Shown here in pieces: positions 1-43,918 of a stretch of DNA of 64,000 bases. A model generated the notes under the pieces. That model made no database searches and had not been told where the DNA came from. It was given only the letters and a program-made list of their open reading frames with translations. This DNA comes from Candidatus Anderseniibacteriota bacterium. GTDB taxonomy: Bacteria; Patescibacteriota; Andersenbacteria; UBA10190. Where the stretch lies: NCBI GenBank assembly GCA_040900375.1, contig JBBDZC010000012.1, forward strand, positions 39,301-103,300, written 5' to 3'. The position numbers were made by a program, and so were the translations under genes. The number at the start of each line of letters is the position of its first letter. Position 1 is the first letter of the stretch.

Positions 1-945
1 TGGCGAGACCAAGAACGGGCCCAGCATCAAACTCAAGAATTGGCACGGGCGAAAGCGACGGTGGAGTTCGTGGAGCAGCAGACAAAAATTATTGACGAGA
101 CGCGCGAACTCCTCAAGCTTGCCACAGCAGAAGAGGATGCAGCTACCCTTAGCGATATTAAAAAAACGAGCGCGGCGGTGGCAGCGACACTGACACGGAA
201 AGAACGAGAATTACTCTTCAATGGACCGCATGATCAAAGTAATGCGATTGTGATGATTCAAGCCGGCGCGGGGGGGACTGATGCCCAGGATTGGGCGATG
301 ATGCTCGAGCGCATGTACCTACGGTTGGCAGAGTCCCGGGGTTGGAAAAGCCATTTGCTCGAGCGCCAAATAGGGGAGGAGGCCGGCATTAAACACTCAA
401 CGTTTGAGCTTAAAGGGAATTATGCTTATGGCATCTTAAAACAAGAGCATGGTGTCCATCGGTTAGTGCGTCTCTCACCCTTTAACGCGGATAATTTACG
501 CCAAACATCCTTTGCTGGTGTAGAAATTCTGCCCAAAATTACTTTCCAAGAAGCAATGCCGCTTGATACCAAGGATCTTGTTATTGATACGTTTCGGGCA
601 AGTGGGGCGGGCGGGCAGCATGTTAATAAAACCAGCTCGGCCGTGCGGATTCACCATTTGCCCACGGGCATTATTGTCAGCTGTCAGAATGAACGTTCCC
701 AGGCGCAAAACAAGGAGCAAGCATTGAGTATCCTGCGCGCCAAACTTCAAATCCTAGCTGAACAGGCGCACGCAGAGCAATTAAGCGAGCTAAAAGGAGT
801 GGCTCATGAAGTAGCCTGGGGAAATCAAATTCGCTCATATATCTTGCATCCCTATACACTCGTTAAAGATCACCGCACTGGCCAAGAGGAAACCGATGTA
901 CACAAGGTTCTTGATGGCGATCTGCAGGCTTTTTTACCGCTGTAA
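1..945 (+). CDS. prfB: Peptide chain release factor 2, 5'-truncated by window start (frame stays open to position 1)
   Basis: SPF tripeptide (RF2-specific) and GGQ motif (SGAGGQHVNKT) are present in the translation. The reading frame is open from nt 1, so the gene begins upstream of the window. Confidence 0.9.
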   Translation, partial: WRDQERAQHQTQELARAKATVEFVEQQTKIIDETRELLKLATAEEDAATLSDIKKTSAAVAATLTRKERELLFNGPHDQSNAIVMIQAGAGGTDAQDWAMMLERMYLRLAESRGWKSHLLERQIGEEAGIKHSTFELKGNYAYGILKQEHGVHRLVRLSPFNADNLRQTSFAGVEILPKITFQEAMPLDTKDLVIDTFRASGAGGQHVNKTSSAVRIHHLPTGIIVSCQNERSQAQNKEQALSILRAKLQILAEQAHAEQLSELKGVAHEVAWGNQIRSYILHPYTLVKDHRTGQEETDVHKVLDGDLQAFLPL

Positions 946-1047
946 TCTTCTTTTCTTAAAATAGACGCTTAGGGGGAAGCAAAGCATATGATATACTGGC
1001 CTATACAAGCTTTCCCTATATATGCTTACTTATAACCAGCCGCGCGC

Positions 1048-1728
1048 ATGATTACCTTTACCGAGGTATCAAAAGCCTATACGCCCGAAAGTGCCGCGCT
1101 TGCGAACGTTACCCTCAAGATTCCAACTGGTGATTTTGTTTCGATCGTGGGTCAGTCCGGCGCCGGTAAATCAACGCTCCTCAAACTACTCTCCGCCGAA
1201 GAGCGCCCGTCAGCGGGAAAAATTGTCATTGACGGCTGGGATATCACCCAGATCAAGAAATGGCAAATTCCTCACCTGCGGCGGCAAATTGGCGTGGTGT
1301 TTCAGGATTTTAAACTCCTGCCCAAGCGCACGGCTTTTGAAAACGTGGCGTTTGCCATGGAAGTGGGTGGCGCTCTGTCGCGCGAGATTCGCGAAACAGT
1401 ACCGCATATTCTCAAATTAGTTAACTTGCTGGAAAAAGCGAATGTCTACCCCACGGAAATGTCGGGTGGCGAGAAACAGCGCGTGGCAATTGCTCGGGCC
1501 TTAGCGTATAAGCCACAGATTCTCTTAGCTGATGAGCCAACCGGTAACCTCGATGCACTCCATTCGTGGGATATTGTCCAACTGCTAATTAAAATTAATA
1601 AATTAGGTACAACCGTGTTGCTGGCCACACATAATGATGACATTGTGAACGCACTTAAAAAAAGAGTAGTTACTATTAACAAGGGGGCGGTGATCTCTGA
1701 TCAGCAGGGAGGAACCTATAAATTATGA
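1048..1728 (+). CDS. ftsE: Cell-division ABC transporter ATP-binding protein FtsE
   Basis: Walker A GQSGAGKST, ABC signature LSGGEKQRVAIARAL, Walker B LLADEPTGNLD. About 226 aa, immediately upstream of an FtsX-like permease. Confidence 0.9.
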   Translation: MITFTEVSKAYTPESAALANVTLKIPTGDFVSIVGQSGAGKSTLLKLLSAEERPSAGKIVIDGWDITQIKKWQIPHLRRQIGVVFQDFKLLPKRTAFENVAFAMEVGGALSREIRETVPHILKLVNLLEKANVYPTEMSGGEKQRVAIARALAYKPQILLADEPTGNLDALHSWDIVQLLIKINKLGTTVLLATHNDDIVNALKKRVVTINKGAVISDQQGGTYKL

Positions 1729-1898
1729 CCCCGAAATACATCTTTCCCCATGTTCTTCTCGCAATTTTAGGAAATACTACGGATACTTACCTGCTGGAGA
1801 AGAACATGGTAGTGCTCAACGTCATAATTGTTTAGAATAGCTATGTTGCCAGAAATATTTTTCCCTCTAAGGAATCTAAAACTAGTCGTATCGGCCAA

Positions 1899-2852
1899 AT
1901 GGCCGGGAAAGTTGTTATACGGGGTATGATTGGCATTTCCTTTATGCGCATTCTGCGGACCGCTTTCCAGAATTTGTGGCGTAATATCTGGCTGGCGGTG
2001 GCAACGCTCATTATCACGACGATTACGCTCTTGATGATGTCCGTGCTCTACTTTGCTAACATTTTTGGGGTGCAAGTTCTCCAAAATATTGAAGATAAAG
2101 TTGACTTGTCCGTGATTTTCAAAGAAAACGTTCAGGAACAATACATTACTACCATTGCCCAGGAAGTACGGGCACGGCAGGATGTGCAGGCGGTAACCAT
2201 TGTGACGAGCGCGCAAGCTTTGGATATTTTCCGCCAACGCCACGTAGATGACCCCTTAATCGAGGAATCGCTGCAAGAGCTCCAAGATAATCCGCTGCCG
2301 GCCACTATGTACATTGTGGCCACTGAACCGCGGTTCTATCAAAATATTGCTCAAAGCCTTGAGGCTGAGAAGTACAGCCCTTTTATTGATCGGGTTAATT
2401 ATGAGAATTCGCGCGGAGTGATTGAGCGCCTAATTGCCATTATTTCCTCGGTTAAAAACATCGGATTCTTGGTGACGGTGACGTTTGCGTTGCTCGTGGT
2501 CCTGATCATGTTTAATACCGTCCGGCTCGCCATTTATAGTTTCCGTGAAGAGATTGACATTATGCGCTTGGTCGGTGCCTCGCGCTGGTTTATCCAGGGA
2601 CCCTTTGTGATTGAGGCAGTGATTGTGGCAGTTGTCGCCGTCGGGGTTGCCAGTACATTGATCTACCCCGCGCTCAAAGCAGTCGCCCCGCAACTACAAC
2701 GGTTCTTCTTTGATACGCAAGAGAGCCAATTCAATATTTACCAGTACGCGCTTGAACACTGGACAACCGTGATTGGTTTACAAATGCTTTTGGCCGTGGG
2801 TCTGGCAATCTTCAGTAGCTTGATCGCCGTCCGCCGTTACCTCCGCGATTGA
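1899..2852 (+). CDS. ftsX: Cell-division permease FtsX (start may be the internal ATG near 1926)
   Basis: About 300 aa with an N-terminal TM, a large extracytoplasmic loop and three C-terminal TMs, typical of FtsX. Follows ftsE. Confidence 0.8.
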   Translation: MAGKVVIRGMIGISFMRILRTAFQNLWRNIWLAVATLIITTITLLMMSVLYFANIFGVQVLQNIEDKVDLSVIFKENVQEQYITTIAQEVRARQDVQAVTIVTSAQALDIFRQRHVDDPLIEESLQELQDNPLPATMYIVATEPRFYQNIAQSLEAEKYSPFIDRVNYENSRGVIERLIAIISSVKNIGFLVTVTFALLVVLIMFNTVRLAIYSFREEIDIMRLVGASRWFIQGPFVIEAVIVAVVAVGVASTLIYPALKAVAPQLQRFFFDTQESQFNIYQYALEHWTTVIGLQMLLAVGLAIFSSLIAVRRYLRD

Positions 2853-2894
2853 TAATACCCTGGGTAGGTGTCTTTAAAGGTAGGTAAACGGCGT

Positions 2895-3848
2895 TTAAAG
2901 GCGACTTAAAATATCATTTAAGGACGCGGGTAGTTCTTGGACACGGACAAGGGGCGTTTGGCTGACAATGTCATAGACAGAAGGCAGGTAGCGCGCTGAC
3001 TGCACGATAATGCGCAGTCGTTGGCCGACAAAGCGAGATGAAGGCAGCAGCCGCACCTCTATCACTCCAGGGTGGCCGCGGAGCTTGCGCAAAACGTCAT
3101 ACCGCAAACCCTCGATCCAAACATCAAGAATGCGCGGACAAGCTAAGGCATTGGCAATCTCATTGCATGTGCCTAAATGCGCCAGAGTAGCTTGGTGGAG
3201 AAGCACCATGGGCCAGTCTAACGTTTCAGCGGTAGCGACAAATCGCGTGGCAACAATAATAGTGCGGTTAGGAAAGAGTGAGGGTAATAAACTCTTGAGC
3301 GGTAGAACACCGAGCTGATCGGCAGTATCATCAAGTAAGATGAGCGGGGCATCCGAGAGGGCCGCACGCGCGAGATTAAGACGCAGCCGCTCGGCCGTAG
3401 AAAGTAAACGAGCAGACCGATGCATAACCGAGTTTAATTGTACCAGGTCACTAATCTCACCAATGCGGGCTGGCAGACTGGTAATCTGATGAGTAGTGCC
3501 AAAAGCTTGGAGAACCTCAAACGCGCTCTCGTGCGCAGGTTCCGACTCTTCGGCCGAAACATACCCAGCTGCTAAATCTTTAACTTTATGGGGGGCCACG
3601 CCATTAACATGAATTGTACCCTTGCTCGCTGCCGTTATACCGGCCAGAAGCCGCAGTAACGTAGTTTTGCCTGCTCCTTCACGGCCGAAAACGGTCACGC
3701 AGTCACTTTGATTTAGGCGTAAATTGATGTCGCGCAAGACAGAGTGAGGGTGAGGAGACCGGCCGAAAAGTGAAGTCAGGAAGGAGGATTGGGGCTGATA
3801 GTCGACGTAGACATGGCGCAGATCAACAAACGAAGGCTGGTGGTCCAT
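2895..3848 (-). CDS. ABC-type ATPase with degenerate signature motif; the ORF as listed extends to 3956, but the likely start is Met at 3848 (MDHQPSF...)
   Basis: Walker A GREGAGKTTLLRLLAG is present. The signature reads LSTAERLRL instead of LSGGQ. Walker B reads LILLDDTAD, so the catalytic Glu is replaced by Asp. A C-terminal extension of about 100 aa follows. Confidence 0.65.
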   Translation of the reverse strand: MDHQPSFVDLRHVYVDYQPQSSFLTSLFGRSPHPHSVLRDINLRLNQSDCVTVFGREGAGKTTLLRLLAGITAASKGTIHVNGVAPHKVKDLAAGYVSAEESEPAHESAFEVLQAFGTTHQITSLPARIGEISDLVQLNSVMHRSARLLSTAERLRLNLARAALSDAPLILLDDTADQLGVLPLKSLLPSLFPNRTIIVATRFVATAETLDWPMVLLHQATLAHLGTCNEIANALACPRILDVWIEGLRYDVLRKLRGHPGVIEVRLLPSSRFVGQRLRIIVQSARYLPSVYDIVSQTPLVRVQELPASLNDILSRL

Positions 3849-3976
3849 GCAGGCTAGTATATCATACTGCCCTTGGGTTAGGCGCCCGGCAGTGGACAAA
3901 AAATAAAGGGTGGCGGTATGGTAATTGCAGAAGATTGTTCTCTTTAACCAATCCACCCAATTCGGGAGGAAAAATC

Positions 3977-4552
3977 ATGACGCAAGCTCTGGCTGTCGAA
4001 AAGATAGTGGAAAAACTTTGCGCCTTCTTCACTCCACCCCGTTCCCATCTCATTCTCAATCAAAAGCAATACAAAAGATTGAACACTCCCGTCTATGTGA
4101 TGGCGGTGTGGCAAGGGCAGAGCAGAAATTTTGCTTTTCCGGTCGATGAACCGATGGACGCTGACATTCTTCCCCGTACTTTCACACTGACCAAGTCTGA
4201 TGATTTAGCAGTATTCATGCTCGGCAGTGCGGCGGAAGTATTGAATGCCAGAGTGAGGCACCTCACTGCTTTTCTTGGCCATCGCTCACCGAATTTGCAT
4301 CTACCGGCTGACTCGACGCTGGACTACTTGACTGCCGCCGAGACCAATAACCAACTTGATACACTAGAGCAGCTTGGCGAAGTTGAGGTTGGCCTCGATA
4401 TACATGTTGCTCTGCCAGGGACAATGCAGGCGCCAAGGTGCTTTAAATCAGTGGTTCGGGCGGTGCCTTTGGCCGCGCTGTTTACTCCGGCACAGTTGGC
4501 GCAGGCACTCCAAGTGGACCAGCCAAAGCTGCGATTTCGAGAGTTTTTCTAA
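3977..4552 (+). CDS. Hypothetical protein (start chosen at ATG 3977, preceded by GGAGG)
   Basis: The ORF 3770..4552 has its 5' part antisense to the ABC ATPase. An internal ATG with a GGAGG Shine-Dalgarno 8 nt upstream gives a 191-aa product with no recognised motif. Confidence 0.4.
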   Translation: MTQALAVEKIVEKLCAFFTPPRSHLILNQKQYKRLNTPVYVMAVWQGQSRNFAFPVDEPMDADILPRTFTLTKSDDLAVFMLGSAAEVLNARVRHLTAFLGHRSPNLHLPADSTLDYLTAAETNNQLDTLEQLGEVEVGLDIHVALPGTMQAPRCFKSVVRAVPLAALFTPAQLAQALQVDQPKLRFREFF

Positions 4553-4604
4553 AGCGCAGACCATGAGAGCCCCCACGTCGATCAGGGAAGACGACGTGGG
4601 ATTT

Positions 4605-5195
4605 TTAATTGTGAGACTCGGCGGGCGGCGGGAGAGGTGTCCCTGTTGTTACGGGCGTTTGCCAAGCTTGCTTGGCGGATAGGCGAGCGCCGAGTAACCC
4701 GGGAACATACTGAATGGCTAAAAATAAACTAAAGGTAAAAATCATGTCGCCAAAGAGCGTGTTGCGGAAGAAGGGCAGGGCATAGAGATACGATAAGATA
4801 AGGCCGTCGAGCGTGCGGGCATACATGCCTGACCACCACCACACCGCGGCATTCGTCACGAGATAAAATAACACCGAGCTTATAACAGTCACGCCGATGG
4901 TCCGCCAGGGCCGAAAACTGCCATGAAGCAGGTGGCCGAGTAAGGCAATAAGGCCAAAGCAGCTATAAACTGCCACCGTGATTTCGATTTGGTCAAAGCC
5001 GATCATGGTGTCGGAAATGAACATGGCAACCAACGGCAGGGCGAGAGCCAGAGGAACACTCACCATAGATCCAGCGACAAGTGCCAGGGCGGCTATGGGT
5101 GCCACGTTAGGAATATGCTCGCTCACCCGGGCGGCAACGGAGAAAATAACGAGGCTTATCATTAACAAGAAAGTATAAAATTGCGATAATCTCAT
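4605..5195 (-). CDS. Small polytopic membrane protein, ECF-transporter S-component-like (about 6 TM, 196 aa)
   Basis: Six predicted hydrophobic helices in about 190 aa, the size and topology of ECF substrate-capture subunits. Lies 3' of the DUF4430 operon on the same strand. Confidence 0.45.
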   Translation of the reverse strand: MRLSQFYTFLLMISLVIFSVAARVSEHIPNVAPIAALALVAGSMVSVPLALALPLVAMFISDTMIGFDQIEITVAVYSCFGLIALLGHLLHGSFRPWRTIGVTVISSVLFYLVTNAAVWWWSGMYARTLDGLILSYLYALPFFRNTLFGDMIFTFSLFLAIQYVPGLLGARLSAKQAWQTPVTTGTPLPPPAESHN

Positions 5196-5204
5196 ATCAC
5201 CACC

Positions 5205-7301
5205 TTAGAGCACGTTAAGCTTAGCGAGCAAGCGCGTCAGCGTTACCCCCACGCCAATATTCGCTAATCCAAAGAGAGCAAAGGCAAACCGGTGATCAGT
5301 TGCCGTCACTGGCACAGGCGGAGTAAGCGAGGAGGAAAGTGGTGGCGTAACGCGCGGCGATGATAGCGGAGAGATTATCGGTGACGATAGAGCCGCTTGG
5401 GTAGCCAATCTCTCATCGGGGCCGGCGAGGCTCTGGTAGTAAGGAGAGGGCGACATAACGGGGACGCTGGTGGTGGTGCCGGCTGCTCTTGCGACGGGCG
5501 GCACGGAAATTTGAGTCGCAAGGAGAGAAGAGTCGTCGGTGGTAATTTGGCCGCCCACAATATCAGTAATCACTGGCAGGGTCGTAACCGGCCACGGCGT
5601 ACCGAGAAGAGCGACTGCTGCGTACGCTGTCATAAAAGCCGACACATCGGTATGTGACCGCCACCCAAAACCACCGGTGGCTGATTGATACCGCAGCAGA
5701 GCATGCCAGGGTGTGGCGCCGGTAGTATTTTGCCAATCGTTGGGATTCTCACCTAGGGCAATAATGGCTTGCAGAGCCCACGCCGTGCTGGCCGAGTTTT
5801 CGCCAAAGCCACCATACTGATCTTGATTAAGCTGCAAGTAGTGCCGCGCGCGCTCGAGCGCCTCCTGAACATTATGCTCGCCACCCTGTCGCTGATAGGC
5901 TTGCAGGGCTTGGGTCGCCGCGGCGGTAATATCAATGCCTACCCACGAACCGTTCGCTGTCTGCTTGGTAAGAATTGTTTGGACGGTGGCGGCAATCGGG
6001 TTACCGCTGACTGGCTCACCGGCGGCCAGCAGAGCGAGAACTCCAAAAATATCATCATTCACGAGTGTTTCTTCGCCAATTTGATTGTGGTGATAGTAGC
6101 CTTTGAGCTTCGTAACTAAGTTTTGGCCGCCGAAGCGCCGCGGGTCACCGCCCCCCGCTCGCACCGCCAATACGAGCCGTTCTACATCTAGAGCGGATTC
6201 AAGAGACGTCCGGGCGAGCGCGTGGGCCAAACTATTGCTACCGACCGTAACGGCGCTGGCTCGTTCATTATTAGCTCCAAAGGCAATGGCACTCCACGCC
6301 GAGGTAATTTGACCATCAATACTGCCGTCACCCTGCTGGCGGGCGCGCAGATAACGGAGCGCTTGGGCAGCGCGCTCTTGCCGGTCAGTCGTTGTTATTC
6401 CAGCCACGTGCCCGGGTGGGGGAGTGGGGGATGGAGATAGTGTTGGTATCGCTGGAGTCGGTGAGGGACTGGGTAATGGTGACGGGAAAAGACTGGGGCT
6501 AGGAGAGCTACTGGCAACAGGGCTTGGGGAAGGGCTTAGAGATGGCGAGGGGGTGGGAGTGGGAGAGGATATGGGACTCGGTGAAGGCACAAGCACGGTG
6601 ACTACCTGGCGAGCACTGCGGATAAAAGTAGGGCCGGAAGCCTCAATAGTTAATTCACCAGGGGTGGGGGTGATGATCACCACGCCATCAGCGCCAACTT
6701 CGTGTGACTTGTCATTGACATGTAGGGTAGCGCCGCCAGCATTTTCCCACTGTCCGTGCCAGTTAAAATTTTCATCGTAGTCACCCACACGCTGCTCAAC
6801 CAAAATTTCCGCGGGTTGATCAGCATTTATGGGAGATGGCAAAGTGACGCGCAGGGGAACGCCCGGAAAAGCAGCAAAGGCTAACAGGAGATCATCTCCG
6901 GACTGGGGAGTGTAGCTATCTATCCCAACAGCCGCCGGGTCATAATTGACAAAAAATCCCCAGGATTTTGAGAAATCTGCAGGTGTGTCGTCATTGCCAA
7001 TTCGTTTGAGGAAAAGGCCAAAGCCAAAATCCTGAAATTCATAGGTTAAACCCGTAGCTTCCGCGGCAGCAACTAATGCGCAAGCACCCACTGAACTCAA
7101 CTCATGGGCAACTCCCGTCGTATCTACCACCGTGCAGTCACCAGCAGCGACGTGACCGGCGAACAGGGTGGCGGCGCTGCCCTCAATGCGCAGGTGGACA
7201 GTGGTGGCCGCGCGTACCGGAACAAATGTAACCGCAATGGCGCCGGTCGTGAGGATAAAGAACAGCCCGGCAGCGACAACGCGGTGAATGTTTTCTCTCA
7301 T
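5205..7301 (-). CDS. Cell-surface protein: signal peptide, DUF4430-like domain, Pro/Ser-rich linker, prenyltransferase/squalene-oxidase-like alpha/alpha-toroid repeats, C-terminal TM anchor
   Basis: N-terminal hydrophobic signal. The motif ...SWGFFVNYDPAAVGIDSYTPQSGDDLLLAF resembles DUF4430. A long PSPSP linker follows. QGDGS/GGFG repeats (QGDGSIDGQITSAWSAI, QTANGSWVG, YGGFGENSASTAWALQAI, TGGFGWRSHTDVSAF) are typical of terpenoid-cyclase/prenyltransferase repeats. The C-terminus is hydrophobic. Confidence 0.7.
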   Translation of the reverse strand: MRENIHRVVAAGLFFILTTGAIAVTFVPVRAATTVHLRIEGSAATLFAGHVAAGDCTVVDTTGVAHELSSVGACALVAAAEATGLTYEFQDFGFGLFLKRIGNDDTPADFSKSWGFFVNYDPAAVGIDSYTPQSGDDLLLAFAAFPGVPLRVTLPSPINADQPAEILVEQRVGDYDENFNWHGQWENAGGATLHVNDKSHEVGADGVVIITPTPGELTIEASGPTFIRSARQVVTVLVPSPSPISSPTPTPSPSLSPSPSPVASSSPSPSLFPSPLPSPSPTPAIPTLSPSPTPPPGHVAGITTTDRQERAAQALRYLRARQQGDGSIDGQITSAWSAIAFGANNERASAVTVGSNSLAHALARTSLESALDVERLVLAVRAGGGDPRRFGGQNLVTKLKGYYHHNQIGEETLVNDDIFGVLALLAAGEPVSGNPIAATVQTILTKQTANGSWVGIDITAAATQALQAYQRQGGEHNVQEALERARHYLQLNQDQYGGFGENSASTAWALQAIIALGENPNDWQNTTGATPWHALLRYQSATGGFGWRSHTDVSAFMTAYAAVALLGTPWPVTTLPVITDIVGGQITTDDSSLLATQISVPPVARAAGTTTSVPVMSPSPYYQSLAGPDERLATQAALSSPIISPLSSPRVTPPLSSSLTPPVPVTATDHRFAFALFGLANIGVGVTLTRLLAKLNVL

Positions 7302-10864: not shown

Positions 10865-11191
10865 CTATTGATTCTCTGCTTGTGGTTTCCATTGTCGGTA
10901 TTCTAGTTCACGCCGAAGTTCCTCAAGAAGTTCCTGCTCTGGTCGGTGAGCATTCTGCTGAAGAAATTGAGCGCATTTAAGCACTTTCGTTTTACCCTGC
11001 GGAAGAAGTTCACACCAGGCATCGAAAGTTTCTGCATTAATCTCTTCAATATCTTTTTCCATGCCATCCAGTAAAACAAGTGAAATTACTCTGCTCGTGC
11101 GTTTGTTTAGTTCAGTGAGCACTTCGTCTTGAGACAATCTAGCCGCAACACGAGCGACGTGAAGAGCTTGTCCCCAATACGCTTCAAACAT
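10865..11191 (-). CDS. Small hypothetical protein, possible HTH regulator of the divergent two-gene module
   Basis: 108 aa, low GC. ARVAARLSQDEVLTELNKRTSRVISL could form a helix-turn-helix. Divergent from the 11432 operon with a palindromic operator in between. Confidence 0.45.
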   Translation of the reverse strand: MFEAYWGQALHVARVAARLSQDEVLTELNKRTSRVISLVLLDGMEKDIEEINAETFDAWCELLPQGKTKVLKCAQFLQQNAHRPEQELLEELRRELEYRQWKPQAENQ

Positions 11192-11238
11192 AATTTATCC
11201 TTTCAAAAGAGCAGTTTGTTATCTATGTTGATCCGTTT

Positions 11239-11255
11239 TGTGATAGCTTATCACA
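11239..11255. promoter_or_regulatory. Perfect inverted repeat TGTGATA-gct-TATCACA in the divergent promoter region
   Basis: 7-bp arms separated by 3 nt, centred between the minus-strand 108-aa gene and the plus-strand ZnR-DUF4145 gene. Typical geometry of a dimeric repressor operator. Confidence 0.4.
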
Positions 11256-11431
11256 ATATTCAATTTTCATAGTTTCGCACTATAGACAGGATCAGAACCT
11301 TTTTCCAGAATACACCCGCCCAATTTTTTATCACCACCTTTGCGATACCAAATGCTTCCGACTAAGACGTTGGCTCCATTGTTGGTTCATGGACGGTGCC
11401 CTATAAGGCTGATATACTCCATAGTTAAACT

Positions 11432-12142
11432 ATGAGCATACTTCGTGATATTCAATTTAGGACAACTGATGGGAAGGGCGGCTACATAGCCCTTGATCGT
11501 TTTCCTGATTCTTGCCCAGCATGCGACCAGTCTATTGAGCCAGTCTTCGTTGATGCCTTCTCTAATTACACTGGAAGCATGGACGGTTTTCTGCAGGCAG
11601 TTTTTCGTTGCCCAAGACATAAGTGCGGGAGAATTTTCCTTGCGTATTATGTCGGTTCAAGAAGTATGCGCTCCGATTTAATGGAATTAAGCCAGATTGG
11701 CATTTTGACATCAGTGGAAGGTCGCTCTTTTGACCAGATAATCAGGGATATGTCAGAACGATTTACGGTTATATACCTTCAAGCCGAAATTGCGGAGCAT
11801 AATGGCTTAAAGGAGATATGTGGTCCAGGGTATAGAAAGGCACTTGAATTTTTGATTAAGGATTATTTGCTTCGGCAATGTGGAGGAGATGCACATAAAG
11901 AAGCCGCGGTAAAAAAGAAGAAGCTAGGAGCCGCCGTAAAAGACATTGACGATAGCAACATTCAGGCAACGGCAAAACGTGCTGCTTGGCTGGGAAATGA
12001 CGAAACGCACTACGAACGCAAATGGACCACTAAGGACCTGACTCACCTTAAAGACTTGATATCCTTAGTTGTGAACTGGATTGAGAACACAGAAAAAACT
12101 AAAAAATATGTGGAAGAAATGCCTGAAGAAGTAACTCCGTAG
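11432..12142 (+). CDS. Zinc-ribbon + DUF4145-like domain protein (candidate defence/abortive-infection component)
   Basis: Cys cluster CPAC...CPRHKC in the N-terminus. The C-terminal region (...YRKALEFLIKDYLL...RAAWLGNDETHYERKW) matches the DUF4145 pattern (R..GN...H). About 40% GC versus a flanking ~53%. Confidence 0.55.
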   Translation: MSILRDIQFRTTDGKGGYIALDRFPDSCPACDQSIEPVFVDAFSNYTGSMDGFLQAVFRCPRHKCGRIFLAYYVGSRSMRSDLMELSQIGILTSVEGRSFDQIIRDMSERFTVIYLQAEIAEHNGLKEICGPGYRKALEFLIKDYLLRQCGGDAHKEAAVKKKKLGAAVKDIDDSNIQATAKRAAWLGNDETHYERKWTTKDLTHLKDLISLVVNWIENTEKTKKYVEEMPEEVTP

Positions 12143-12143
12143 T

Positions 12144-12749
12144 ATGCCTGACGAAAAAATAAAAATATCCGAAAAAGACTTTGAGGAGTTCATGCAAAAG
12201 CAAGGTTCAAAGTTTTTTCAAATAGAATCGGATGCAATGGGTGCTTATGGGGATAAGCAAATGGAACTTTTCTACAAAATTCTTGATTTTACCTATAAAA
12301 CTCTGACGGTAATCGCCTTAGTGGCTGGTTTTGGATTTACCGGGTTAGATAAGGTGCACAGTATATTACTCTTCGTTTTGGGCGAGGGATTTCTTTTCGC
12401 TGCAATTATCTACGGGCTGTATTGGGTGCAAAAAGTTTATGAAAGCAACCTTGATGCGTTGGATAAAGCTAAGGTGCGAATCAAGGAAGGTTTTGCTGCT
12501 CGTAATGCTGCCTTCAGAAAAATCTACAACAGCTACTTAGAAAAGAAAGAGGTAGAAAAGGCTGATATGGAAGATTTAACGCAAAAGAATAATGATTTGC
12601 TTCAAGTGTTTGCGGGCAAAACAGGTGAAAATAACAAGCAAGAAAGGACCCCACTCAAGCCCATAATGATTTTGTTTATTGCAGGCTCAATCTTAATTTT
12701 ATTTTCCTTTCCTTTCATATGTACCTTCGTGTTCTTATCTAAAATCTAA
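12144..12749 (+). CDS. Three-TM membrane protein, translationally coupled to the DUF4145 gene (candidate effector)
   Basis: Starts 1 nt after the upstream stop. Two central TM helices, a long charged amphipathic region and a C-terminal TM. Very AT-rich (about 33% GC at the 5' end). Confidence 0.5.
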   Translation: MPDEKIKISEKDFEEFMQKQGSKFFQIESDAMGAYGDKQMELFYKILDFTYKTLTVIALVAGFGFTGLDKVHSILLFVLGEGFLFAAIIYGLYWVQKVYESNLDALDKAKVRIKEGFAARNAAFRKIYNSYLEKKEVEKADMEDLTQKNNDLLQVFAGKTGENNKQERTPLKPIMILFIAGSILILFSFPFICTFVFLSKI

Positions 12750-12758
12750 CACGATTTT

Positions 12759-13541
12759 TCAGCTCCGAATCATAGCGTCAAAAAAGGTTGGACCACCTTG
12801 TTTTGCTGATTCAGATTGCAAGCTAGCAAGGGTTGAAATCATTGCGCTATTCACCTCAAAAACAAAATCTTTACTTACCACCATTCGGTCATTAGCTAAG
12901 ACATTCAGCGCCCCGCTAACTGTGCCTTCGTGAATCAAGTTAATTTCAAGATTTTCAAACTCAATTGCTAGGCGGGCGATTCCCTTCCTAGCTACCACAA
13001 TAGGAAGGCGAGTCGTAAAATCATCTGCTCTACTCCCATTCTCGTTAATTTTGAAAAACTTCTTGAAATGCACAATACCATCACCCAAAGTAACGTAAAC
13101 CGCTTTAATTGCCACCGGCGCCTCGCTTTGGTTGTGAAAGGTAAATTCTAGGTGGATGCGAGTACCTGGAAGCTCCTGGCTCTTAATAACGCCCATAAAA
13201 GGACTAAGCGTTAAGAAAGACTGTTCAGTTGGACTATCATCTACCACGGGTGGCTTGTCTGAGGATGTAGTGCGCATAAGGTCTTGTATCTGTGCCACCA
13301 TGGTATCGTTGGCGCCGGATATTTGGTAAATGTTGAAGTTGGAGTTGTGAGTAGTATTGCCGACACCACCCTCAATATCCTTAATTGTCATTTTTTGCTT
13401 ATTTCTACTGGCAATTTCTTTATGCTCTTTAAAGTTATGGGAATTGTTCCGATTCCAAGTAAACGGAATAGACAATTTACCGACCAAATCTTTAAACCAA
13501 GATGATTCCATATCATCAGCATTTTGCTCTTTTTCCTGCAA
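12759..13541 (-). CDS. Hypothetical protein (island cargo), no recognised domain
   Basis: 260-aa ORF, low GC, convergent with the two-gene module. Ends about 130 nt from the 3' end of tRNA-Gln. Confidence 0.45.
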   Translation of the reverse strand: MQEKEQNADDMESSWFKDLVGKLSIPFTWNRNNSHNFKEHKEIASRNKQKMTIKDIEGGVGNTTHNSNFNIYQISGANDTMVAQIQDLMRTTSSDKPPVVDDSPTEQSFLTLSPFMGVIKSQELPGTRIHLEFTFHNQSEAPVAIKAVYVTLGDGIVHFKKFFKINENGSRADDFTTRLPIVVARKGIARLAIEFENLEINLIHEGTVSGALNVLANDRMVVSKDFVFEVNSAMISTLASLQSESAKQGGPTFFDAMIRS

Positions 13542-13677
13542 ATTTCAAGCAGGAAATGGGGGTTTTGAAGGCTAGGCTTGTAACTCTGTCATTGAAACGA
13601 GTTCTGCCAGTTGGCTTGAGGATAAAGGGGTCAAGTACAATTATTTCTGCATCTTGATCTAGCGACTATTGTGCGTG

Positions 13678-13748
13678 TTCCGGGACAGGGATTCGAACCC
13701 CAATTTTCAGGTTCAGAGCCTGACGTCCTGCCGTTAGACGATCCCGGA
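13678..13748 (-). tRNA. tRNA-Gln (anticodon CTG)
   Basis: Acceptor TCCGGGA/TCCCGGA, anticodon stem TCAGG/CCTGA with loop CTCTGAA, T-loop TTCGAAT. 71 nt. Confidence 0.85.
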
Positions 13749-24471: not shown

Positions 24472-25233
24472 ATGACTTTACCCTTACCTACCCGTGAAGC
24501 TCCACGGGCTCACGCCCGTGGCCTCTCCCGTCAAGGGACGCCGCCGCAGGCGGTGAGCGGAACCCCGCGAAGCCGAAGGCCCAGCTACCCCACTTCGCTC
24601 GCCGTTGGCGAGCTCCGCGGGGTACCCCATTCGCCTTCATCCACGGGCTCACGCCCGTGGCTTTCGGCGAAGTGGGGTAAACTTCCATCCGAGGCTAAGC
24701 GCGTCTTTACCGGACGCATTTTTAGTGTGTGGCAATGGGAACAGCAACTATATAACGGTAGTACGGCAATCTTTGAAGGGATTAGCCGCCCCGACTATGT
24801 TTGTGCTATTGGAATATTGCCTAATCAAAAACTCCTGTTAGTGGAAGATGAACAACCTGATCGTCCAGCCATCATCACGCCGGCAGGCGGTCAACTCGAG
24901 CCGGGTGAAGAACCAAGCGCGGGCGCAGGACGAGAATTCCGGGAAGAAACAGGCTATGAAGCCAGGCAGCTTGTACCCTGGTTTACGTATCAGCCAAATA
25001 GTAAATTATTTATGACGTGCCACTTCTTCATCGCCCGCCATCTTACAGCGCACGGTCAGACCGCGCTTGAAGCAGGGGAGCGCATCACGCTTAAGCAGTA
25101 CACTTTTGCGGAATTTGTCGCCCTTGGGAGCGACCCGGCTGTACGAGATGGAATGTTACGTATTAAGCTGCTTGAAGCCCAGCTTGATCCCCAAAAGAAA
25201 CAAGATCTCCACCACTTACTCTATGCCCGGTAG
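24472..25233 (+). CDS. NUDIX hydrolase (ADP-ribose pyrophosphatase-like); the first ~75 codons of the ORF are encoded by the hairpin-repeat element and the true start is uncertain
   Basis: NUDIX box GGQLEPGEEPSAGAGREFREETG. Conserved N-terminal strand GRIFSVWQWEQQ begins about nt 24700. The upstream in-frame sequence is Pro/Arg-rich low complexity derived from the repeats. Confidence 0.75.
   Translation: MTLPLPTREAPRAHARGLSRQGTPPQAVSGTPRSRRPSYPTSLAVGELRGVPHSPSSTGSRPWLSAKWGKLPSEAKRVFTGRIFSVWQWEQQLYNGSTAIFEGISRPDYVCAIGILPNQKLLLVEDEQPDRPAIITPAGGQLEPGEEPSAGAGREFREETGYEARQLVPWFTYQPNSKLFMTCHFFIARHLTAHGQTALEAGERITLKQYTFAEFVALGSDPAVRDGMLRIKLLEAQLDPQKKQDLHHLLYAR
24514..24661. repeat. Pair of identical 20-nt palindromic hairpins (CCACGGGCTCACGCCCGTGG) flanking a ~108-nt structured segment, within the 5' region of the NUDIX ORF
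   Basis: Exact copies at about 24514-24533 and 24642-24661. Between them, 13-nt complementary arms TACCCCACTTCGC / GCGAAGTGGGGTA. Same hairpin family as 10676 and 10757. Confidence 0.55.
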
Positions 25234-26572
25234 TGAAAAACAGGTTCGTGTCCGGATCGCGCCTAGTCCCACCGGTAATCTTCATGTGGGCACGGTCCGC
25301 GCGGCTCTTTTTAATGAACTTTTTGCTCGCCACCACGGCGGCAGCTTCATCATCCGTATTGAAGATACTGATAAGGCGCGCTCGCGTCCCGAGTTTGAAC
25401 GTAATATTCTCGAGGGCTTAGCCTGGCTGGGAATAGAGTGGCAGGAAGGGCCGGACAAAGACGGTAGTTTTGGTCCCTACCGTCAGTCAGAACGTATTGA
25501 ACACTACCGCGCCGCTTTGCAGGCGCTCTTGGACCAGGATAAAGCTTACTATGATGAGACAGCTAATAACGTCATTCGGTTACGTGTGGCTCCTCAAGAA
25601 GTACGGTTTACTGACCTTATCCGGGGAGAAATTATTACCCATACTGATAGTTGGGGAGGGGACTTTGTGATCGCGCGCGACCTTAAAGATCCTGTTTTTC
25701 ATCTCGCGGTTGTGGTTGATGATGCCGCCCAGCAGATTAGCCATGTGATTAGGGGAGAGGACCATATCAGCAATACCGCCCGCCATCTTTTACTGCAGCA
25801 AGCGCTTAATCTTCCAACACCGCACTATGCTCACTTACCATTACTCCTGGATGAGCATCGCCGGAAACTCTCGAAGCGGGCAGGGGAAGTCAGTGTGCTC
25901 ACGTACCAACAGCACGGCTACTTGCCGGATGCTCTGCTAAACTATTTAGCGCTGCTGGGTTGGAATCCCAAGAATGACCAAGAATATTTCACCCACGAAG
26001 AACTAATTCGTAACTTTAACCTGCCGGGTATCCAAAAGGGCGGAGCAGTTTTCTCCCTGGTAAAGCTGCAAGGTTTTAATAAGTATTATTTACGCCAATT
26101 ATCACCGCCGGCGTTGTTGGCGGCAGCCGAGCCGTATTTACGCCAGGCGGGAATCGCGGTGGATAATACGGCTTACTGGCAGTCGGCGCTGCAAACAGAG
26201 CAAGAGCGGGTGAGTACTCTTCAAGAATTAGGCCAGGCTGTAGCGTTTTTTGCACCAGACTGGCAAGGTGATTTCCCGGGGACGCTGCTTATATGGAAAA
26301 AAAGTGATCGTCAGCAGACACGGCAGATTCTAGAAAAATTAGCCCAGTTTCTTGAGACCCTGCCCGAGCCGACGTTTACGGTGCAAAGTCTCCACGATGA
26401 GATTATGAACTGGCTGGAGACAGAACAGTTGGGACGAGGGGATACACTGTGGCCTCTGCGGGTGGCCCTGACTGGACGCGAGCATTCACCTGGGCCCTTT
26501 GAAGTAGCCGCCGTCCTGGGCAAACAGGCGACGCTGCAGCGCATTGCGCAGGCGCTGGAGAAACTATTATAA
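25223..26572 (+). CDS. gltX: Glutamyl-tRNA synthetase (the ORF opens at 25067; likely start at MPGSEKQ, 25223, overlapping the NUDIX stop)
   Basis: HIGH-region PSPTGNLHVG and KMSKS-like KLSKR, in the class I GluRS arrangement. Confidence 0.9.
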   Translation: MPGSEKQVRVRIAPSPTGNLHVGTVRAALFNELFARHHGGSFIIRIEDTDKARSRPEFERNILEGLAWLGIEWQEGPDKDGSFGPYRQSERIEHYRAALQALLDQDKAYYDETANNVIRLRVAPQEVRFTDLIRGEIITHTDSWGGDFVIARDLKDPVFHLAVVVDDAAQQISHVIRGEDHISNTARHLLLQQALNLPTPHYAHLPLLLDEHRRKLSKRAGEVSVLTYQQHGYLPDALLNYLALLGWNPKNDQEYFTHEELIRNFNLPGIQKGGAVFSLVKLQGFNKYYLRQLSPPALLAAAEPYLRQAGIAVDNTAYWQSALQTEQERVSTLQELGQAVAFFAPDWQGDFPGTLLIWKKSDRQQTRQILEKLAQFLETLPEPTFTVQSLHDEIMNWLETEQLGRGDTLWPLRVALTGREHSPGPFEVAAVLGKQATLQRIAQALEKLL

Positions 26573-28441: not shown

Positions 28442-28447
28442 AAAAAT

Positions 28448-28474
28448 CCCCTGCTCTTACTTAAAGAGTAGGGG
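28448..28474. terminator. Hairpin terminator (CCCCTGCTCTT-actt-AAGAGTAGGGG) after the small membrane gene; a second hairpin GCCCCGC-taa-GCGGGGC lies about 45 nt further
   Basis: Imperfect 11-bp stem preceded by an A-run on the plus strand, giving bidirectional potential. Confidence 0.45.
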
Positions 28475-29201
28475 ATAGGAACAAAGAGGCTTTAGTGCAG
28501 ACCCAAGCGGCTACTTGCCCCGCTAAGCGGGGCTTGCTGTGCCCTTCCGAAACGTCGGGTGAAGGAGAGCCGGCGAGGAGGAAGCGACAGTAGTCATCCC
28601 ACCTGCTGTCGTAGTAGTCGAGGTCCAGCTCGCGCCCGTCACCCCACCTGCCGAGACACGGGACATGGCGATCGCCATCCAGCACGGCAGAGGAGCCGAG
28701 GCAGATGGTGGGGAATTCCCGCTGCAGCTCCTTGTGCTTCGGGTGTAAACCGACGGCGAGCAGGTCCTCGGTTTTCGCCAGCTCCTTGTCGCCCATCGCT
28801 GCGACCGCTGCTTCCACCTGTTCGCTCTCCATATCCTTCTTGAAATGGACGAGGTACAGCTTGCGCGGACCGCGGCGGGTGATGGGGAAGTTGGCGGTGG
28901 TGATGTTCTCGTTGGCGTAGTTGTACTCGCCAGCGCGGACCATCTCCTCCGTGGTCGCTTTCTCGCCGACCGTCAGCTCGCCCAGTTCCGTGACGCTCGG
29001 GTCAGGCGTGAGCTTTGGGAGACCCAGAGCCACGCGGACCGTATCCCGATGAAGTGTAGGGAAGCCGTCCGTGGCAGCGGCTTCCAGGATGTCGGTGAAG
29101 AGACCGCTGACGAGCAGCTGTTGGAGCTGCTTGCCAGAGAGGTCCTGCTGACCAACGAACTTCAACACTTGCTGCGCCTGCCGATAGGTTGCCGATTTCA
29201 T
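28461..29201 (-). CDS. Hypothetical protein encoded by an atypically GC-rich (~62%) segment
   Basis: Longest ORF in a locally high-GC block with codon usage biased to G/C third positions, unlike neighbouring genes. No recognised domain. Upstream is a 950-bp AT-rich gene desert. Confidence 0.4.
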   Translation of the reverse strand: MKSATYRQAQQVLKFVGQQDLSGKQLQQLLVSGLFTDILEAAATDGFPTLHRDTVRVALGLPKLTPDPSVTELGELTVGEKATTEEMVRAGEYNYANENITTANFPITRRGPRKLYLVHFKKDMESEQVEAAVAAMGDKELAKTEDLLAVGLHPKHKELQREFPTICLGSSAVLDGDRHVPCLGRWGDGRELDLDYYDSRWDDYCRFLLAGSPSPDVSEGHSKPRLAGQVAAWVCTKASLFLSPTL

Positions 29202-30158
29202 CTGGCAATCCTCCTTCTTAGGTAGTAGGCCAGTACCTTATTGCACCTAGCAATGGATACATCGCCTCTGAAAAGAACAGCGTAATAATACAATTAATAC
29301 CTATCAATGTCAATGGCCTATCGCGAGGCCGAGAGGGCAGGGGAAGAATACTCTCTGCGATTTTTATATTGTGCGACGTTTTAGGTAGCTAGAAACTCAT
29401 AAGCCGGATTTTGCCACTATCGGAGTGTTTCTAGAGCTTAAGCGACAACGCTAGGCGTTTGAGAAAAAGTGCTATTAAAACTACTACTGCGGAGGTCATA
29501 AAAAATATTCCGGAAGATACTCTTTGCAAGAGAAAATTTTTGATCTTGAAGTTCACGTATGGGTGAAGAGGTGATAAGAGGGAAGCTACACCGAGGGGCT
29601 AATAAAGAATATATAAGCTCACAAGACTCATACTAGGTACCTATAAACTCGCATACGCGATTTAAACGCTTCGTGATAGGTAATATTTACTAGTACCCAT
29701 GATACATATGTATCTATGTGGCTCGAGAGAATAACAAAATGTTCCAGGGTGAGTATGATAGAGAGATAGACGAGATATGTACGTCCCCGCCGGGGCAGAA
29801 CTTTTCAGCAGGGCAGGCGAGGAGGGAGACAGAAAAGAGAGCGATGTAGCTCAAGCGGTAGATCATGCTCAGCGATGGCGTACGTCGCACAATATACCTT
29901 TTGCGACATTCTATGTTTCCCCTTTATGTTATCCACATATACGAACATATTTAATACATCCGTCAATTTATGTCGTAGTGTTTTTCAGCTCGGTTTAATT
30001 CCCTCCTTATTACTTACTCTCTCATTAACTTATTCCGCCCAACTATCTTCTCCTCCCCTACCCTACAGGGAAAAGAGTATGGCTGAGGTGAGGACTTAGT
30101 AAAAATATGAAGTTATTTATATAAGAGAGGGTAGAGCGGGGGTGCCCACTCCCCTACC

Positions 30159-30653
30159 CTAGGTTGCCGGCTGGCCTAATTTTTCGCGGGTGCATTGGCT
30201 CGGAACATACCCCGCTGACTCGGCTTCCTCGGCAGAGTTAAACCATACTTCATTTTCGGCCTTTATTTGCCGGCGAGCCGCACAATCGCGGTGATGATAC
30301 TTATCGGAGTTAACACTAGCCACAAATAATTTTTCTAACGTGCCGGCAGTGGGTGGCGCTGTCTGTTGGACCGCCGCCACAGTGGGCGTGGAAGATTCGG
30401 TGGTGATATTATTTTTTTCATCAGCGAGCGCTTGGCCGTCTGCCTGTAAAACCTGCAAGGCCTCGGCTGTGCCACCGGCACTCGGTTTATCCGGGTAGGC
30501 TTGGTCGCTAAAGACAATGGGATGCGAAGCATAGTACGGAGACATTACACGCCCGACCTGCCACCCTGCCCCGAAGAGCACTATCCCCACCACTAGAAAT
30601 ACGAGCACGCTGCGATGTTGCTGTGACCATACCCAGAGCGAAGTTATGTCCAT
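30159..30653 (-). CDS. Membrane-anchored protein with C-terminal Ada-like metal-binding domain
   Basis: N-terminal TM. C-terminal YHHRDCAARRQIKAENEVWFNSAEEAESAGYVPSQC aligns with the Ada N-terminal Zn-binding motif (C..AR.....EN V.F....EA..AG+.PC). Confidence 0.5.
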   Translation of the reverse strand: MDITSLWVWSQQHRSVLVFLVVGIVLFGAGWQVGRVMSPYYASHPIVFSDQAYPDKPSAGGTAEALQVLQADGQALADEKNNITTESSTPTVAAVQQTAPPTAGTLEKLFVASVNSDKYHHRDCAARRQIKAENEVWFNSAEEAESAGYVPSQCTREKLGQPAT

Positions 30654-43013: not shown

Positions 43014-43089
43014 TGGTGCGCCCGGCAGGAATCGAACCTGCGACCGTTGGCTTAAAAGGCCACTGCTCTACCAATTGAGCTACGGGCGC
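43014..43089 (-). tRNA. tRNA-Lys (anticodon TTT), CCA encoded
   Basis: GCGCCCGTAGCTCAATTGGTAGAGCAGTGGCCTTTTAAGCCAACGGTCGCAGGTTCGATTCCTGCCGGGCGCACCA. Anticodon loop CTTTTAA. Confidence 0.85.
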
Positions 43090-43207
43090 GTACGAACTAT
43101 ATACCGATTTGATTGCAAATAGTCAATTACTACTAAATGTGATACCATATAGGTGATAACTTATCCACATTTATCCTTCATTCATTTATTTAAATTTATC
43201 CACGCCT

Positions 43208-43918
43208 ATGGCTCACACAAAAACACTGCAGTTTAATGTTTCGGCCTGGCTGTACGGGGGGATGGTTGCGGTACTGCTGCTTGGTCTCATCTTTGCGGCT
43301 CGGCAATCGTCAGCCGCTGATCGCTACACCTTCTTGATGCGCGGTGATGTCATGAAGCTTGATGCTGCCAATAAAAATATTCACGTGTATATTCGTCACG
43401 TCAATTCAGCGGCCGAACATGATGCTGGCCAAACTATTGAGATTGATGTCCGCTCGGCTACTTTCTACAATTATGACAGCAAGCAGCGCAAGGTACGGAC
43501 AACTCTCGGTTCATTGGCCGTGGGTGACGAAGTCGTGATTCGGGGTACCGGCGGGAGCGGGATCTATAATGCGGATTGGGTAGTGGAAAATGATAACTTA
43601 GTTAAGGTTTTAGGGACGGTTGATACACAGGATGTCAGTAATAACTTCTTGAAAGTTGAGATTGAATCAGTGACATTTCAATCAACTGGTAAGGCCTATA
43701 AGGCAAATATCTTCAAGAAGGGTGCTGTGGTCCGTGTCTACTACGATGAAGATAGTGTAAAGTTTATCAGCCGGGATGGGAATGCGATGAGGGCAGATGA
43801 AATTGCGAATAACGGCGAAAAGATCACACTTAAGAACATTAAGGTCAAGTACGGCTCGCGTTTTGAAGCTGATGCCGCCGCACCTGTTTCAGAGATTACC
43901 GACGGTAAACACCTGTAG
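43208..43918 (+). CDS. Signal-anchored hypothetical secreted protein (tandem beta-rich domains)
   Basis: N-terminal TM (WLYGGMVAVLLLGLIFAA). An internal duplicated pattern (...VYIRHV...VRS / ...VRVYYDEDSVKFI...) resembles DUF5666-type repeats. Confidence 0.4.
   Translation: MAHTKTLQFNVSAWLYGGMVAVLLLGLIFAARQSSAADRYTFLMRGDVMKLDAANKNIHVYIRHVNSAAEHDAGQTIEIDVRSATFYNYDSKQRKVRTTLGSLAVGDEVVIRGTGGSGIYNADWVVENDNLVKVLGTVDTQDVSNNFLKVEIESVTFQSTGKAYKANIFKKGAVVRVYYDEDSVKFISRDGNAMRADEIANNGEKITLKNIKVKYGSRFEADAAAPVSEITDGKHL

Follow-up and report, generated by a model that had tools for sequence, protein, structure and literature searches.

Why should a gene of unusually high GC content lie directly beside almost 1 kb of AT-rich DNA that seems to encode nothing? 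The question was raised by a 64-kb stretch of the genome of a Candidatus Anderseniibacteriota bacterium (contig JBBDZC010000012.1, positions 39,301–103,300; this whole analysed stretch is hereafter called the window), in which a preliminary description had pointed out a GC-rich "orphan" gene and an adjoining gene desert. The compositional contrast was confirmed. The 246-aa open reading frame (ORF) on the minus strand at 28461–29201 was present in the ORF list, and its GC content was 0.614 compared with 0.507 for the window. In a sliding-window analysis it formed the GC maximum of the window, and only 0.16% of the 741-nt stretches were as high. Its third codon positions were biased toward G/C as described (GC3 0.761, against 0.39–0.57 in the neighbouring genes). 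The AT-rich stretch at 29225–30158 had a GC content of 0.426 and, as stated, no ORF of more than 75 aa, the longest being 74 aa; it ranked among the lowest 3% of 934-nt stretches rather than forming the minimum, which was located near 12 kb. We consider it probable that this mosaic is explained by two elements of known kinds lying side by side: the gene for a variable protein of a diversity-generating retroelement (DGR), and a replication-terminus region with a dif-like site. Neither the gene nor the site is categorically new; both were previously unlabelled, and the preliminary description had recognised neither the DGR target nor the dif-like site as such.

The gene at 28461–29201 belongs to the DGR variable (target) protein family of the type known in Patescibacteria (candidate phyla radiation, CPR), which comprises small proteins with a C-terminal C-type-lectin domain and a 126-nt variable region (VR). 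In complete DGR cassettes, an error-prone reverse transcriptase (RT) and Avd copy a nearby template repeat (TR) and randomise its adenines, and the complementary DNA replaces the VR. The statement that the product had no recognisable domain held at the level of sequence profiles, where the Pfam search was without a match, and failed at the level of predicted structure, which was a C-type-lectin fold. The prediction was confident over residues 1–214 (mean pLDDT 83), which consist of a helical N-terminal part followed by the C-type-lectin-fold domain, and residues 215–246 formed a disordered tail. The predicted fold matched TvpA and Mtd, and the VR was C-terminal, on the predicted lectin fold. 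Nor was the gene an orphan. We found 27 homologues, mostly of 212 aa, and the identical protein is on record, annotated as hypothetical, from a Candidatus Andersenbacteria bacterium. The alignment of the homologues showed a fixed scaffold, GSSAVLxGxRxVPCLxxWxxxRxLxLxxYxxxWxxxCRFLL, whose x positions differed in nearly every sequence; in other words, the C-terminus of the family is hypervariable on a constant scaffold. According to Roux et al. (2021, PMC8144416), one DGR clade is confined to Patescibacteria, C-lectin folds carry variable regions, and some targets are remote.

The VR of the window gene (126 nt, minus strand, 28569–28694, residues 170–211, SSAVLDGDRHVPCLGRWGDGRELDLDYYDSRWDDYCRFLLAG) matched locus L001 twice in a DNA comparison: at the VR of the homologous gene (6508–6633) and at the TR (6997–7122), a second copy located 360 nt downstream of the homologue's end. 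The L001 cassette was arranged in the order target (6001–6639), TR, Avd and RT. All 28 mismatches between the L001 VR and its own TR were at TR adenines, and this TR encoded SSAVLNGHRNVPYLNRWNDKRKLNLNYYDNRWNDNCRFLLVG, with asparagine AAC codons at the positions where the proteins vary. A second VR/TR pair was held by locus L228 of the same genome, which comprised a paralogous 208-aa target (3469–4095), the TR, Avd on the opposite strand and RT. The window VR differed from the L001 TR at 21 positions; the 31 adenines of the template accounted for 15 of these and its 95 remaining bases for six, this template being diverged and non-cognate. A cognate template was sought in two Andersenbacteria DGR loci; the TR of L228 was only 77% similar, and L229 ended at the end of its contig. 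The L001 cassette sits in an island (612–5029) with a cytosine methylase, an NgoFVII-type restriction enzyme, Vsr and a PDDEXK nuclease. The same island encodes a stand-alone 224-aa protein with an FtsK-gamma domain, which in model bacteria activates XerD.

The composition of the gene was found to be shared by its relatives. Six of the seven family copies measured had a GC3 of 0.76–0.80, with 7–11% A-ending codons (A3; about 8% in the window copy) and 40–47% C-ending codons, and the loci hosting family copies had 45–55% GC. The seventh and most distant copy, L004, had a GC3 of 0.57 and an A3 of 0.17, still above its flanks (44% GC). The RT genes of the same cassettes were far less GC3-rich (0.55 in L001 and 0.39 in L228), and the Avd genes likewise. 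The bias was even along the gene and fell only in a read-through tail of the window copy. High GC3 and low A3 are thus a family trait and not a mark of recent transfer, because the composition is family-wide and persists even beside the family's own RT and Avd genes.

This bears on the idea that the gene was recently acquired from a high-GC donor, with the desert as the remnant of a carrier element such as a prophage, plasmid or island. The position of the gene at the GC maximum of the window agreed with such a transfer, as did its 86–88% nucleotide identity to copies in unrelated neighbourhoods, its absence from the same site in syntenic relatives, and the island setting of the L001 copy, which is accompanied there by restriction-modification genes, Vsr, PDDEXK and the stand-alone FtsK-gamma protein. 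However, every member measured was GC3-rich and A3-poor, including paralogues of about 40% identity and copies beside host-like RT and Avd genes. The desert had no phage, plasmid or other-locus match beyond a 28-bp site and about 60 nt adjoining it, and its part nearest to the 164-aa gene on the far side was backbone, conserved in relatives. The window also contained no trace of an integrase (20 ORFs scanned), RT or Avd. We regard this scenario as unlikely. Among the three options of the preliminary description, the closest was a recently acquired gene with its foreign promoter region. What stood of it was that the gene, about 110 bp upstream and its 3′ end recur elsewhere, and that the gene is missing from the same site in three syntenic relatives; what fell was the extent of the foreign promoter region, which covers only about 110 bp and not the 950-bp desert, and the weight laid on high GC, which as a trait of the family neither dates a transfer nor indicates its source. 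Another option, a decayed integrated element, was not demonstrated: there was no phage or plasmid match and no trace of RT or Avd.

The window copy appears to be a self-contained transcription unit, as read from its predicted promoter, ribosome-binding site and terminator. Its own promoter and 5′ untranslated region were placed at 29202–29314 (minus strand) by a promoter scan (11/12 matches) and lie in a conserved block. The predicted promoter was sigma-70-like, with TTGACA (29313–29308), a 17-nt spacer and TATTAT (to 29285), and the ribosome-binding site was AAGGAGG. Identity with L001, L230 and L231 began exactly at the −35 hexamer and ended just beyond the VR, with divergence upstream; the gene, about 110 bp upstream and the 3′ end were 86–88% identical at the nucleotide level in these three other, unrelated gene neighbourhoods, which is a minimum number. 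A putative terminator hairpin (TCCCCTGCTCTT / AAGAGTAGGGGA), recognised as inverted repeats and followed by seven T on the minus strand, was located at 28447–28475. It would be shared with the convergent 63-aa gene, and the stop codon of the extended ORF lies in its loop.

No TR, Avd or RT was detected in the 64-kb window (tblastn with the RT and Avd of L001; blastn with the VR). Two possibilities follow for the window copy: a remote target, with machinery encoded elsewhere in the genome acting on it in trans, or a copy that has been stranded. This absence does not exclude membership of the DGR target proteins, because remote targets are known (PMC8144416), and family copies without an adjacent RT were common (L003, L004, L230 and L231), standing alone among housekeeping genes. 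In an alignment of the window with L001, L230, L231 and L003, a 19-nt insertion relative to the close family members was found at 28514–28532 (minus strand), containing the hairpin CCCCGC-TTA-GCGGGG (28518–28532). It throws the TAG stop codon of the family out of frame and thereby creates an extra tail; the last 32–34 residues were an unstructured read-through extension of lower GC3, missing in most family members. In L001, L230 and L003 the inverted repeat GGCAAGT...ACTTGCC followed right after the VR (3′ recognition region). In the window a 52-nt insert separated the VR end from GGCAAGT, and the 3′ arm of the inverted repeat was lost. The frame-shifting insertion and the lost repeat arm suggest decay of the window copy, and we lean slightly toward a stranded or decaying copy, since the usual stop codon has been lost through the insertion and the hairpin that follows is no longer intact. 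Variable-length inserts between the VR end and the stop codon were also seen in the family, in the window at 28533–28568 and at equivalent places in L230, L231 and L003; they encode tails like GPPSPEASEGHSK, and the L230 version was longer and internally repetitive.

What, then, is the desert? At 29882–29909 (minus strand) there is a 28-bp sequence, ATGTCGCAAAA-GGTATA-TTGTGCGACGT, which comprises two 11-bp arms around a 6-bp centre (11-6-11), the arms being dyad-symmetric at 9 of 11 positions. Exact matches to its 22-nt core occurred in at least 120 metagenome contigs, each locus having a single site; this number is a lower bound, and the locus counts used here and below (about 140 loci, 144 loci and 137 occurrences) cover the matches listed. 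In the alignment of the 137 distinct occurrences only about 28 bp were conserved and the flanks were unrelated, which points to a protein-binding site and not to an RNA or a promoter. The core CGCAAAAGGTATATTGTG was identical to the E. coli dif sequence CGCATAATGTATATTATG at 15 of 18 positions (sequence and dif criteria from PMC2731167; see also PMC5357621). One full site was found within the 64-kb window. It was intergenic, between the 164-aa gene and the target gene, and 12 of its 28 bases were G or C, a share of 0.43 compared with 0.507 in the window. The desert piece shared with the relative L006 (about 90 nt, same position) ended in ATGTCGCAAAAGGTATATTGTGCGAC.

The strand composition around the site changed as at a terminus. 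The cumulative GC skew of the window reached its maximum at 29–31 kb, and the skew was higher on the left than on the right in all 21 non-viral loci that extended 2.5 kb or more to each side, the window included. With 2.5-kb arms, a plus-to-minus skew switch occurred in 18 of 20 non-viral site-centred loci (p 0.0004), compared with 22 of 43 around centres displaced by 4 kb and with 24 of 44 among unrelated loci. The genes converge on the site. The desert would thus be an intergenic zone at the replication terminus, where an Xer-like tyrosine recombinase would resolve chromosome dimers at the 28-bp dif-type site. Full-text literature searches revealed no description of this motif or of dimer resolution in Patescibacteria.

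Beside the site lies a lineage-specific conserved segment (29910–29967, minus strand), which was 80–88% identical to L006, L143 and L187 at the same syntenic position. It contains a perfect DnaA box, TTATCCACA, at 29929–29937, the only one in the desert. The perfect boxes found within 300 nt of the site numbered 12 in 66 kb over 116 metagenome loci (among the matches listed), where about one was expected; the background was 1.2–1.65 per 100 kb farther off or in control loci. A replication origin, suggested by the AT-rich sequence and the perfect box, was considered and rejected in view of the single box, the terminus-type polarity of the skew and the converging genes. Elsewhere in the window, a perfect and a one-mismatch DnaA box (43161–43169 and 43196–43204) lie 35 bp apart between tRNA-Lys (43014–43089) and an ORF starting at 43208.

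On the far side of the site is the 164-aa backbone gene (30159–30653, minus strand), which reads toward it. The protein has an N-terminal membrane helix and a C-terminus with a weak Ada-type zinc-binding match (Pfam Ada_Zn_binding, E 1.3e-4, narrowly missing the curated cut-off). Of the 144 loci (among the matches listed), 20 from several lineages had a homologue no more than 1.5 kb from the site, and all 20 homologues read toward the site. This constant orientation is among the reasons to ask whether the 28-bp palindrome is something other than dif, such as an operator or anchor for a DNA-binding protein (the 164-aa Ada-zinc-type protein or DnaA), or the attachment site of a widespread integrative element. 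The DnaA boxes within 300 nt, the non-canonical XerD-type arm, the variable cargo adjoining the site and the occurrence of the motif in viral-class contigs could be taken in the same sense; written with three degenerate positions, the motif was found in 22 contigs classed as viral (L205–L226). However, the site was invariant although the 164-aa gene was absent nearby in most loci. An operator would not explain a skew switch that was centred on the site and gone 4 kb away, and the 11-6-11 layout with the 15/18 core match to E. coli dif is specific. Attachment of mobile elements is compatible with dif, since elements exploiting Xer are known (PMC5357621). We give this explanation only a slim chance and retain the dif-like reading. 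The viral-class sites themselves may be plasmid- or phage-borne multimer-resolution or attachment sites. In the four viral-class contigs with enough flank there was no terminus-type skew switch, and DnaA boxes were enriched 0.3–1.5 kb from the site.

The desert also contains a second, degenerate dif-like sequence. In this half-site (29352–29379, plus strand) one arm and four bases of the centre agree fully with the main site; the identical part, TATATTGTGCGACGT (29365–29379), is inverted relative to the main site, and the other arm was unrelated. The two sequences thus form a perfect 15-nt inverted repeat (29365–29379 / 29882–29896), for which shuffled sequences gave zero chance matches. The list of short repeats in the preliminary description had missed this, the most significant repeat of the desert. 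The repeats that it quoted were present, namely CTCCCCTACCCTA at 30053 and 30149, CCCCGCCGGGG at 29785–29795 and GTAGCTCAAGCGGTAGATC at 29846–29864. The half-site geometry, with ATGTCGCACAATAT at 0.2–0.9 kb from the main site, recurred in about ten independent loci (among the matches listed), where 0.06 12-mers were expected by chance. These loci were L095, L159, L145, L130, L202, L112, L199, L206/L221 and L210, and in some of them the enclosed segment carried the zinc-protein gene or another small ORF.

In the window the segment between the half-site and the main site is a 502-bp AT-rich spacer (29380–29881) with no detectable function, which contains CCCCGCCGGGG and the D-arm-like 19-mer. 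The spacer had no homologue in about 140 dif-bearing loci (among the matches listed), a blastn search with the desert gave no match in phages or plasmids, and the small ORFs of the desert had no Pfam match. A tRNA remnant at 29846–29864 was rejected: the 19-mer had been described as a tRNA-D-arm-like fragment, and neither ARAGORN nor Rfam returned anything there, while the best match to 44 tRNAs was 9–10 nt.

Inverted repeats of this kind could bound a 0.5-kb invertible segment, acting as a tyrosine-recombinase phase switch for the variable-protein gene or a neighbour. The perfect repeat is unexpected by chance, 502 bp is a typical spacing for invertible promoters, the segment lies upstream of a variable binding-protein gene, and the geometry recurs in other contigs. 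However, the strong promoter of the target gene is located beyond the segment and is also conserved in family copies lacking these repeats, and inside the segment there was only one weak promoter-like match (9/12). An independent assembly of the same population (L227) had the same orientation, no recombinase gene was found nearby among the 20 ORFs scanned, and one of the repeats is simply part of the conserved 28-bp site. A switch is therefore very unlikely in our view.

Another way to account for about 840 bp without an ORF of more than 74 aa in a compact genome, in a segment upstream of the gene and on the same strand, would be a structured non-coding RNA of large size or an extended leader regulating the target gene; a large non-coding RNA locus had been the remaining option of the preliminary description. 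The region had no Rfam match at gathering or at permissive thresholds (E up to 10), and the folding of 29225–29881 on either strand was no better than that of shuffled sequences (z −0.26 and −0.75). Only about 90 nt of the desert were kept in relatives, conservation being confined to the 28-bp site and the sequence directly adjoining it, and the part shared across lineages resembles a protein-site palindrome. In addition, the gene's own promoter lies downstream of the segment. We consider an RNA of this kind extremely improbable.

The backbone PyrG-L27-MT (methyltransferase)-UppS-164aa-[site]-63aa-43aa-M23-GltX was kept in L006, in which nine backbone genes were syntenic with protein identities of 42–74%; the adjacency of uppS to the M23 and small-membrane genes, about which the preliminary description had asked, is thus the normal arrangement. 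The search for UppS synteny in reference genomes yielded no relative of more than 59% identity, and only L006 was syntenic; L143 and L187, two shorter contigs obtained from the motif scan, had the same order over the part of the backbone that they cover. Between the site and the 63-aa gene, L006 had three unrelated ORFs, L143 one 142-aa ORF and L187 580 bp of non-coding DNA. The cargo ORFs of these relatives had no Pfam match except for a short-chain dehydrogenase in L006. The DGR target gene was missing from the same site in all three. Since the relatives hold different content beside the site, the target gene is lineage-specific cargo in a variable interval next to the dif-like site. Cargo specific to a lineage collects in this interval, the target gene being that of the present one.

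How the gene arrived is another matter. Its Xer-mediated arrival is unsupported, because the two sites enclose only non-coding DNA and not the target gene, and a search of the window for a third dif-like site beyond the target gene found none. One could go further and propose an active capture site, where Xer recombination at dif and half-sites shuffles promoter-bearing cassettes between genomes and leaves half-site scars, the site being part of a clade-specific terminus apparatus together with the DnaA boxes and the membrane-anchored Ada-zinc-type protein. We regard this as distinctly unlikely.

Several points weigh against the reading of the locus as a DGR target beside a dif-like terminus site. 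For the gene, no cognate template repeat was found, either in the window or in L228 and L229. The adenine share of the mismatches, 15 of 21 (71%), falls below the 75% cut-off used in surveys and refers to the TR of a diverged cassette only. Adenine mutagenesis of the window copy is thus only inferred from a bias that is in the expected direction and indirect, because the template compared is a diverged one and the value is below the cut-off. For the site, the right arm TTGTGCGACGT shares no more than 6 of 11 positions with the canonical XerD arm TTATGTTAAAT, which would make the site a variant suited to a divergent, or to a single, Xer recombinase. No Xer protein or integrase was detected among the 20 window ORFs scanned (239–421 aa), about 20 other ORFs of at least 200 aa not having been scanned; xer genes are usually not near dif. 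The perfect DnaA boxes, enriched about 11-fold within 300 nt of the site, are not predicted by a pure dif model. Finally, the target cassette is not bracketed by two dif-like sites, and the pair that exists encloses 502 bp of non-coding DNA.

Some further features of the window were recorded. An imperfect GC-rich hairpin just past the stop codon of the 164-aa gene (30129–30161, minus strand) is probably the terminator of this gene, as read from the sequence. The 13-nt direct repeat CTCCCCTACCCTA has one copy inside this hairpin (30149–30161) and the other at 30053–30065, with a chance expectation of about 0.05 in the region. The lowest GC of the window (0.38–0.42) was found at about 11000–13600, where there are three ORFs of 201–260 aa, one of which was scanned without a Pfam match; adjoining tRNA-Gln (13677–13748), this part may be another island. 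The listed NUDIX (24472–25233) and GltX (25067–26572) ORFs overlap by 167 nt, and the true start of GltX is probably downstream of the listed TTG.

With the present assignment, an unannotated family of "hypothetical proteins" of candidate-phyla bacteria becomes a recognisable class, the small C-lectin DGR targets. Such targets often stand alone, far from an RT, and surveys that require an adjacent RT will miss them. The conserved site provides a candidate dif consensus, atGTCGCAAAAGGTATATTGTGCGACat, for a large and poorly studied bacterial radiation, which could serve as a practical marker for replication termini and for the circularity and completeness of assembled genomes; its flank is flagged as a hot spot of strain-specific genes. 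The GC3-rich and A3-poor targets, the DnaA boxes beside the site and the zinc-protein gene aimed at it could inform the organisation of the terminus in reduced genomes.

The gene can be compared with the known DGR C-lectin proteins, such as Mtd of Bordetella phage, TvpA of Treponema denticola and those of the Patescibacteria clade (PMC8144416). They have in common a C-terminal VR on a C-lectin scaffold, a TR with AAC codons at the variable positions and, in the homologous cassettes, adenine-only VR/TR differences together with Avd and RT; targets located away from any RT are likewise recognised among them. In contrast to these systems, the family protein, at 212 aa, is very small, without a match in Pfam, and carries a helical N-terminal part; the window copy has no TR, Avd or RT in 64 kb and an altered 3′ recognition region; and the whole gene is GC3-rich and A3-poor relative to its own cassette and host.

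The site shares with chromosomal dif sequences (E. coli, B. subtilis, difH, difSL and archaeal sites, served by XerC/XerD or a single Xer) the length of 28 bp, the 11-6-11 layout and the partial dyad. It also shares the intergenic position, the lower GC content, the location at the GC-skew maximum, the conservation within a clade with unconserved flanks, and a core identical to that of E. coli dif at 15 of 18 positions. Its nearly palindromic arms resemble those of the single-recombinase dif systems. However, both arms depart from proteobacterial and Firmicute dif in their outer halves, with the XerD arm matching at 6 of 11 positions, and DnaA boxes often lie close to the candidate site.

The last comparison is with elements that exploit Xer, such as CTX-phi and the gonococcal genetic island, and with the dif modules of Acinetobacter. 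The gonococcal genetic island is flanked by dif and by a site with a divergent XerD arm (PMC5357621). Unlike in the Xer-exploiting elements, the segment between the two sites in the window is non-coding and only 502 bp long, the pair does not enclose the cargo gene, and the shared 15-mer is inverted. The window resembles these systems in combining a full dif-like site with a nearby degenerate site in which one arm and some of the centre are retained, and in having variable cargo beside dif.

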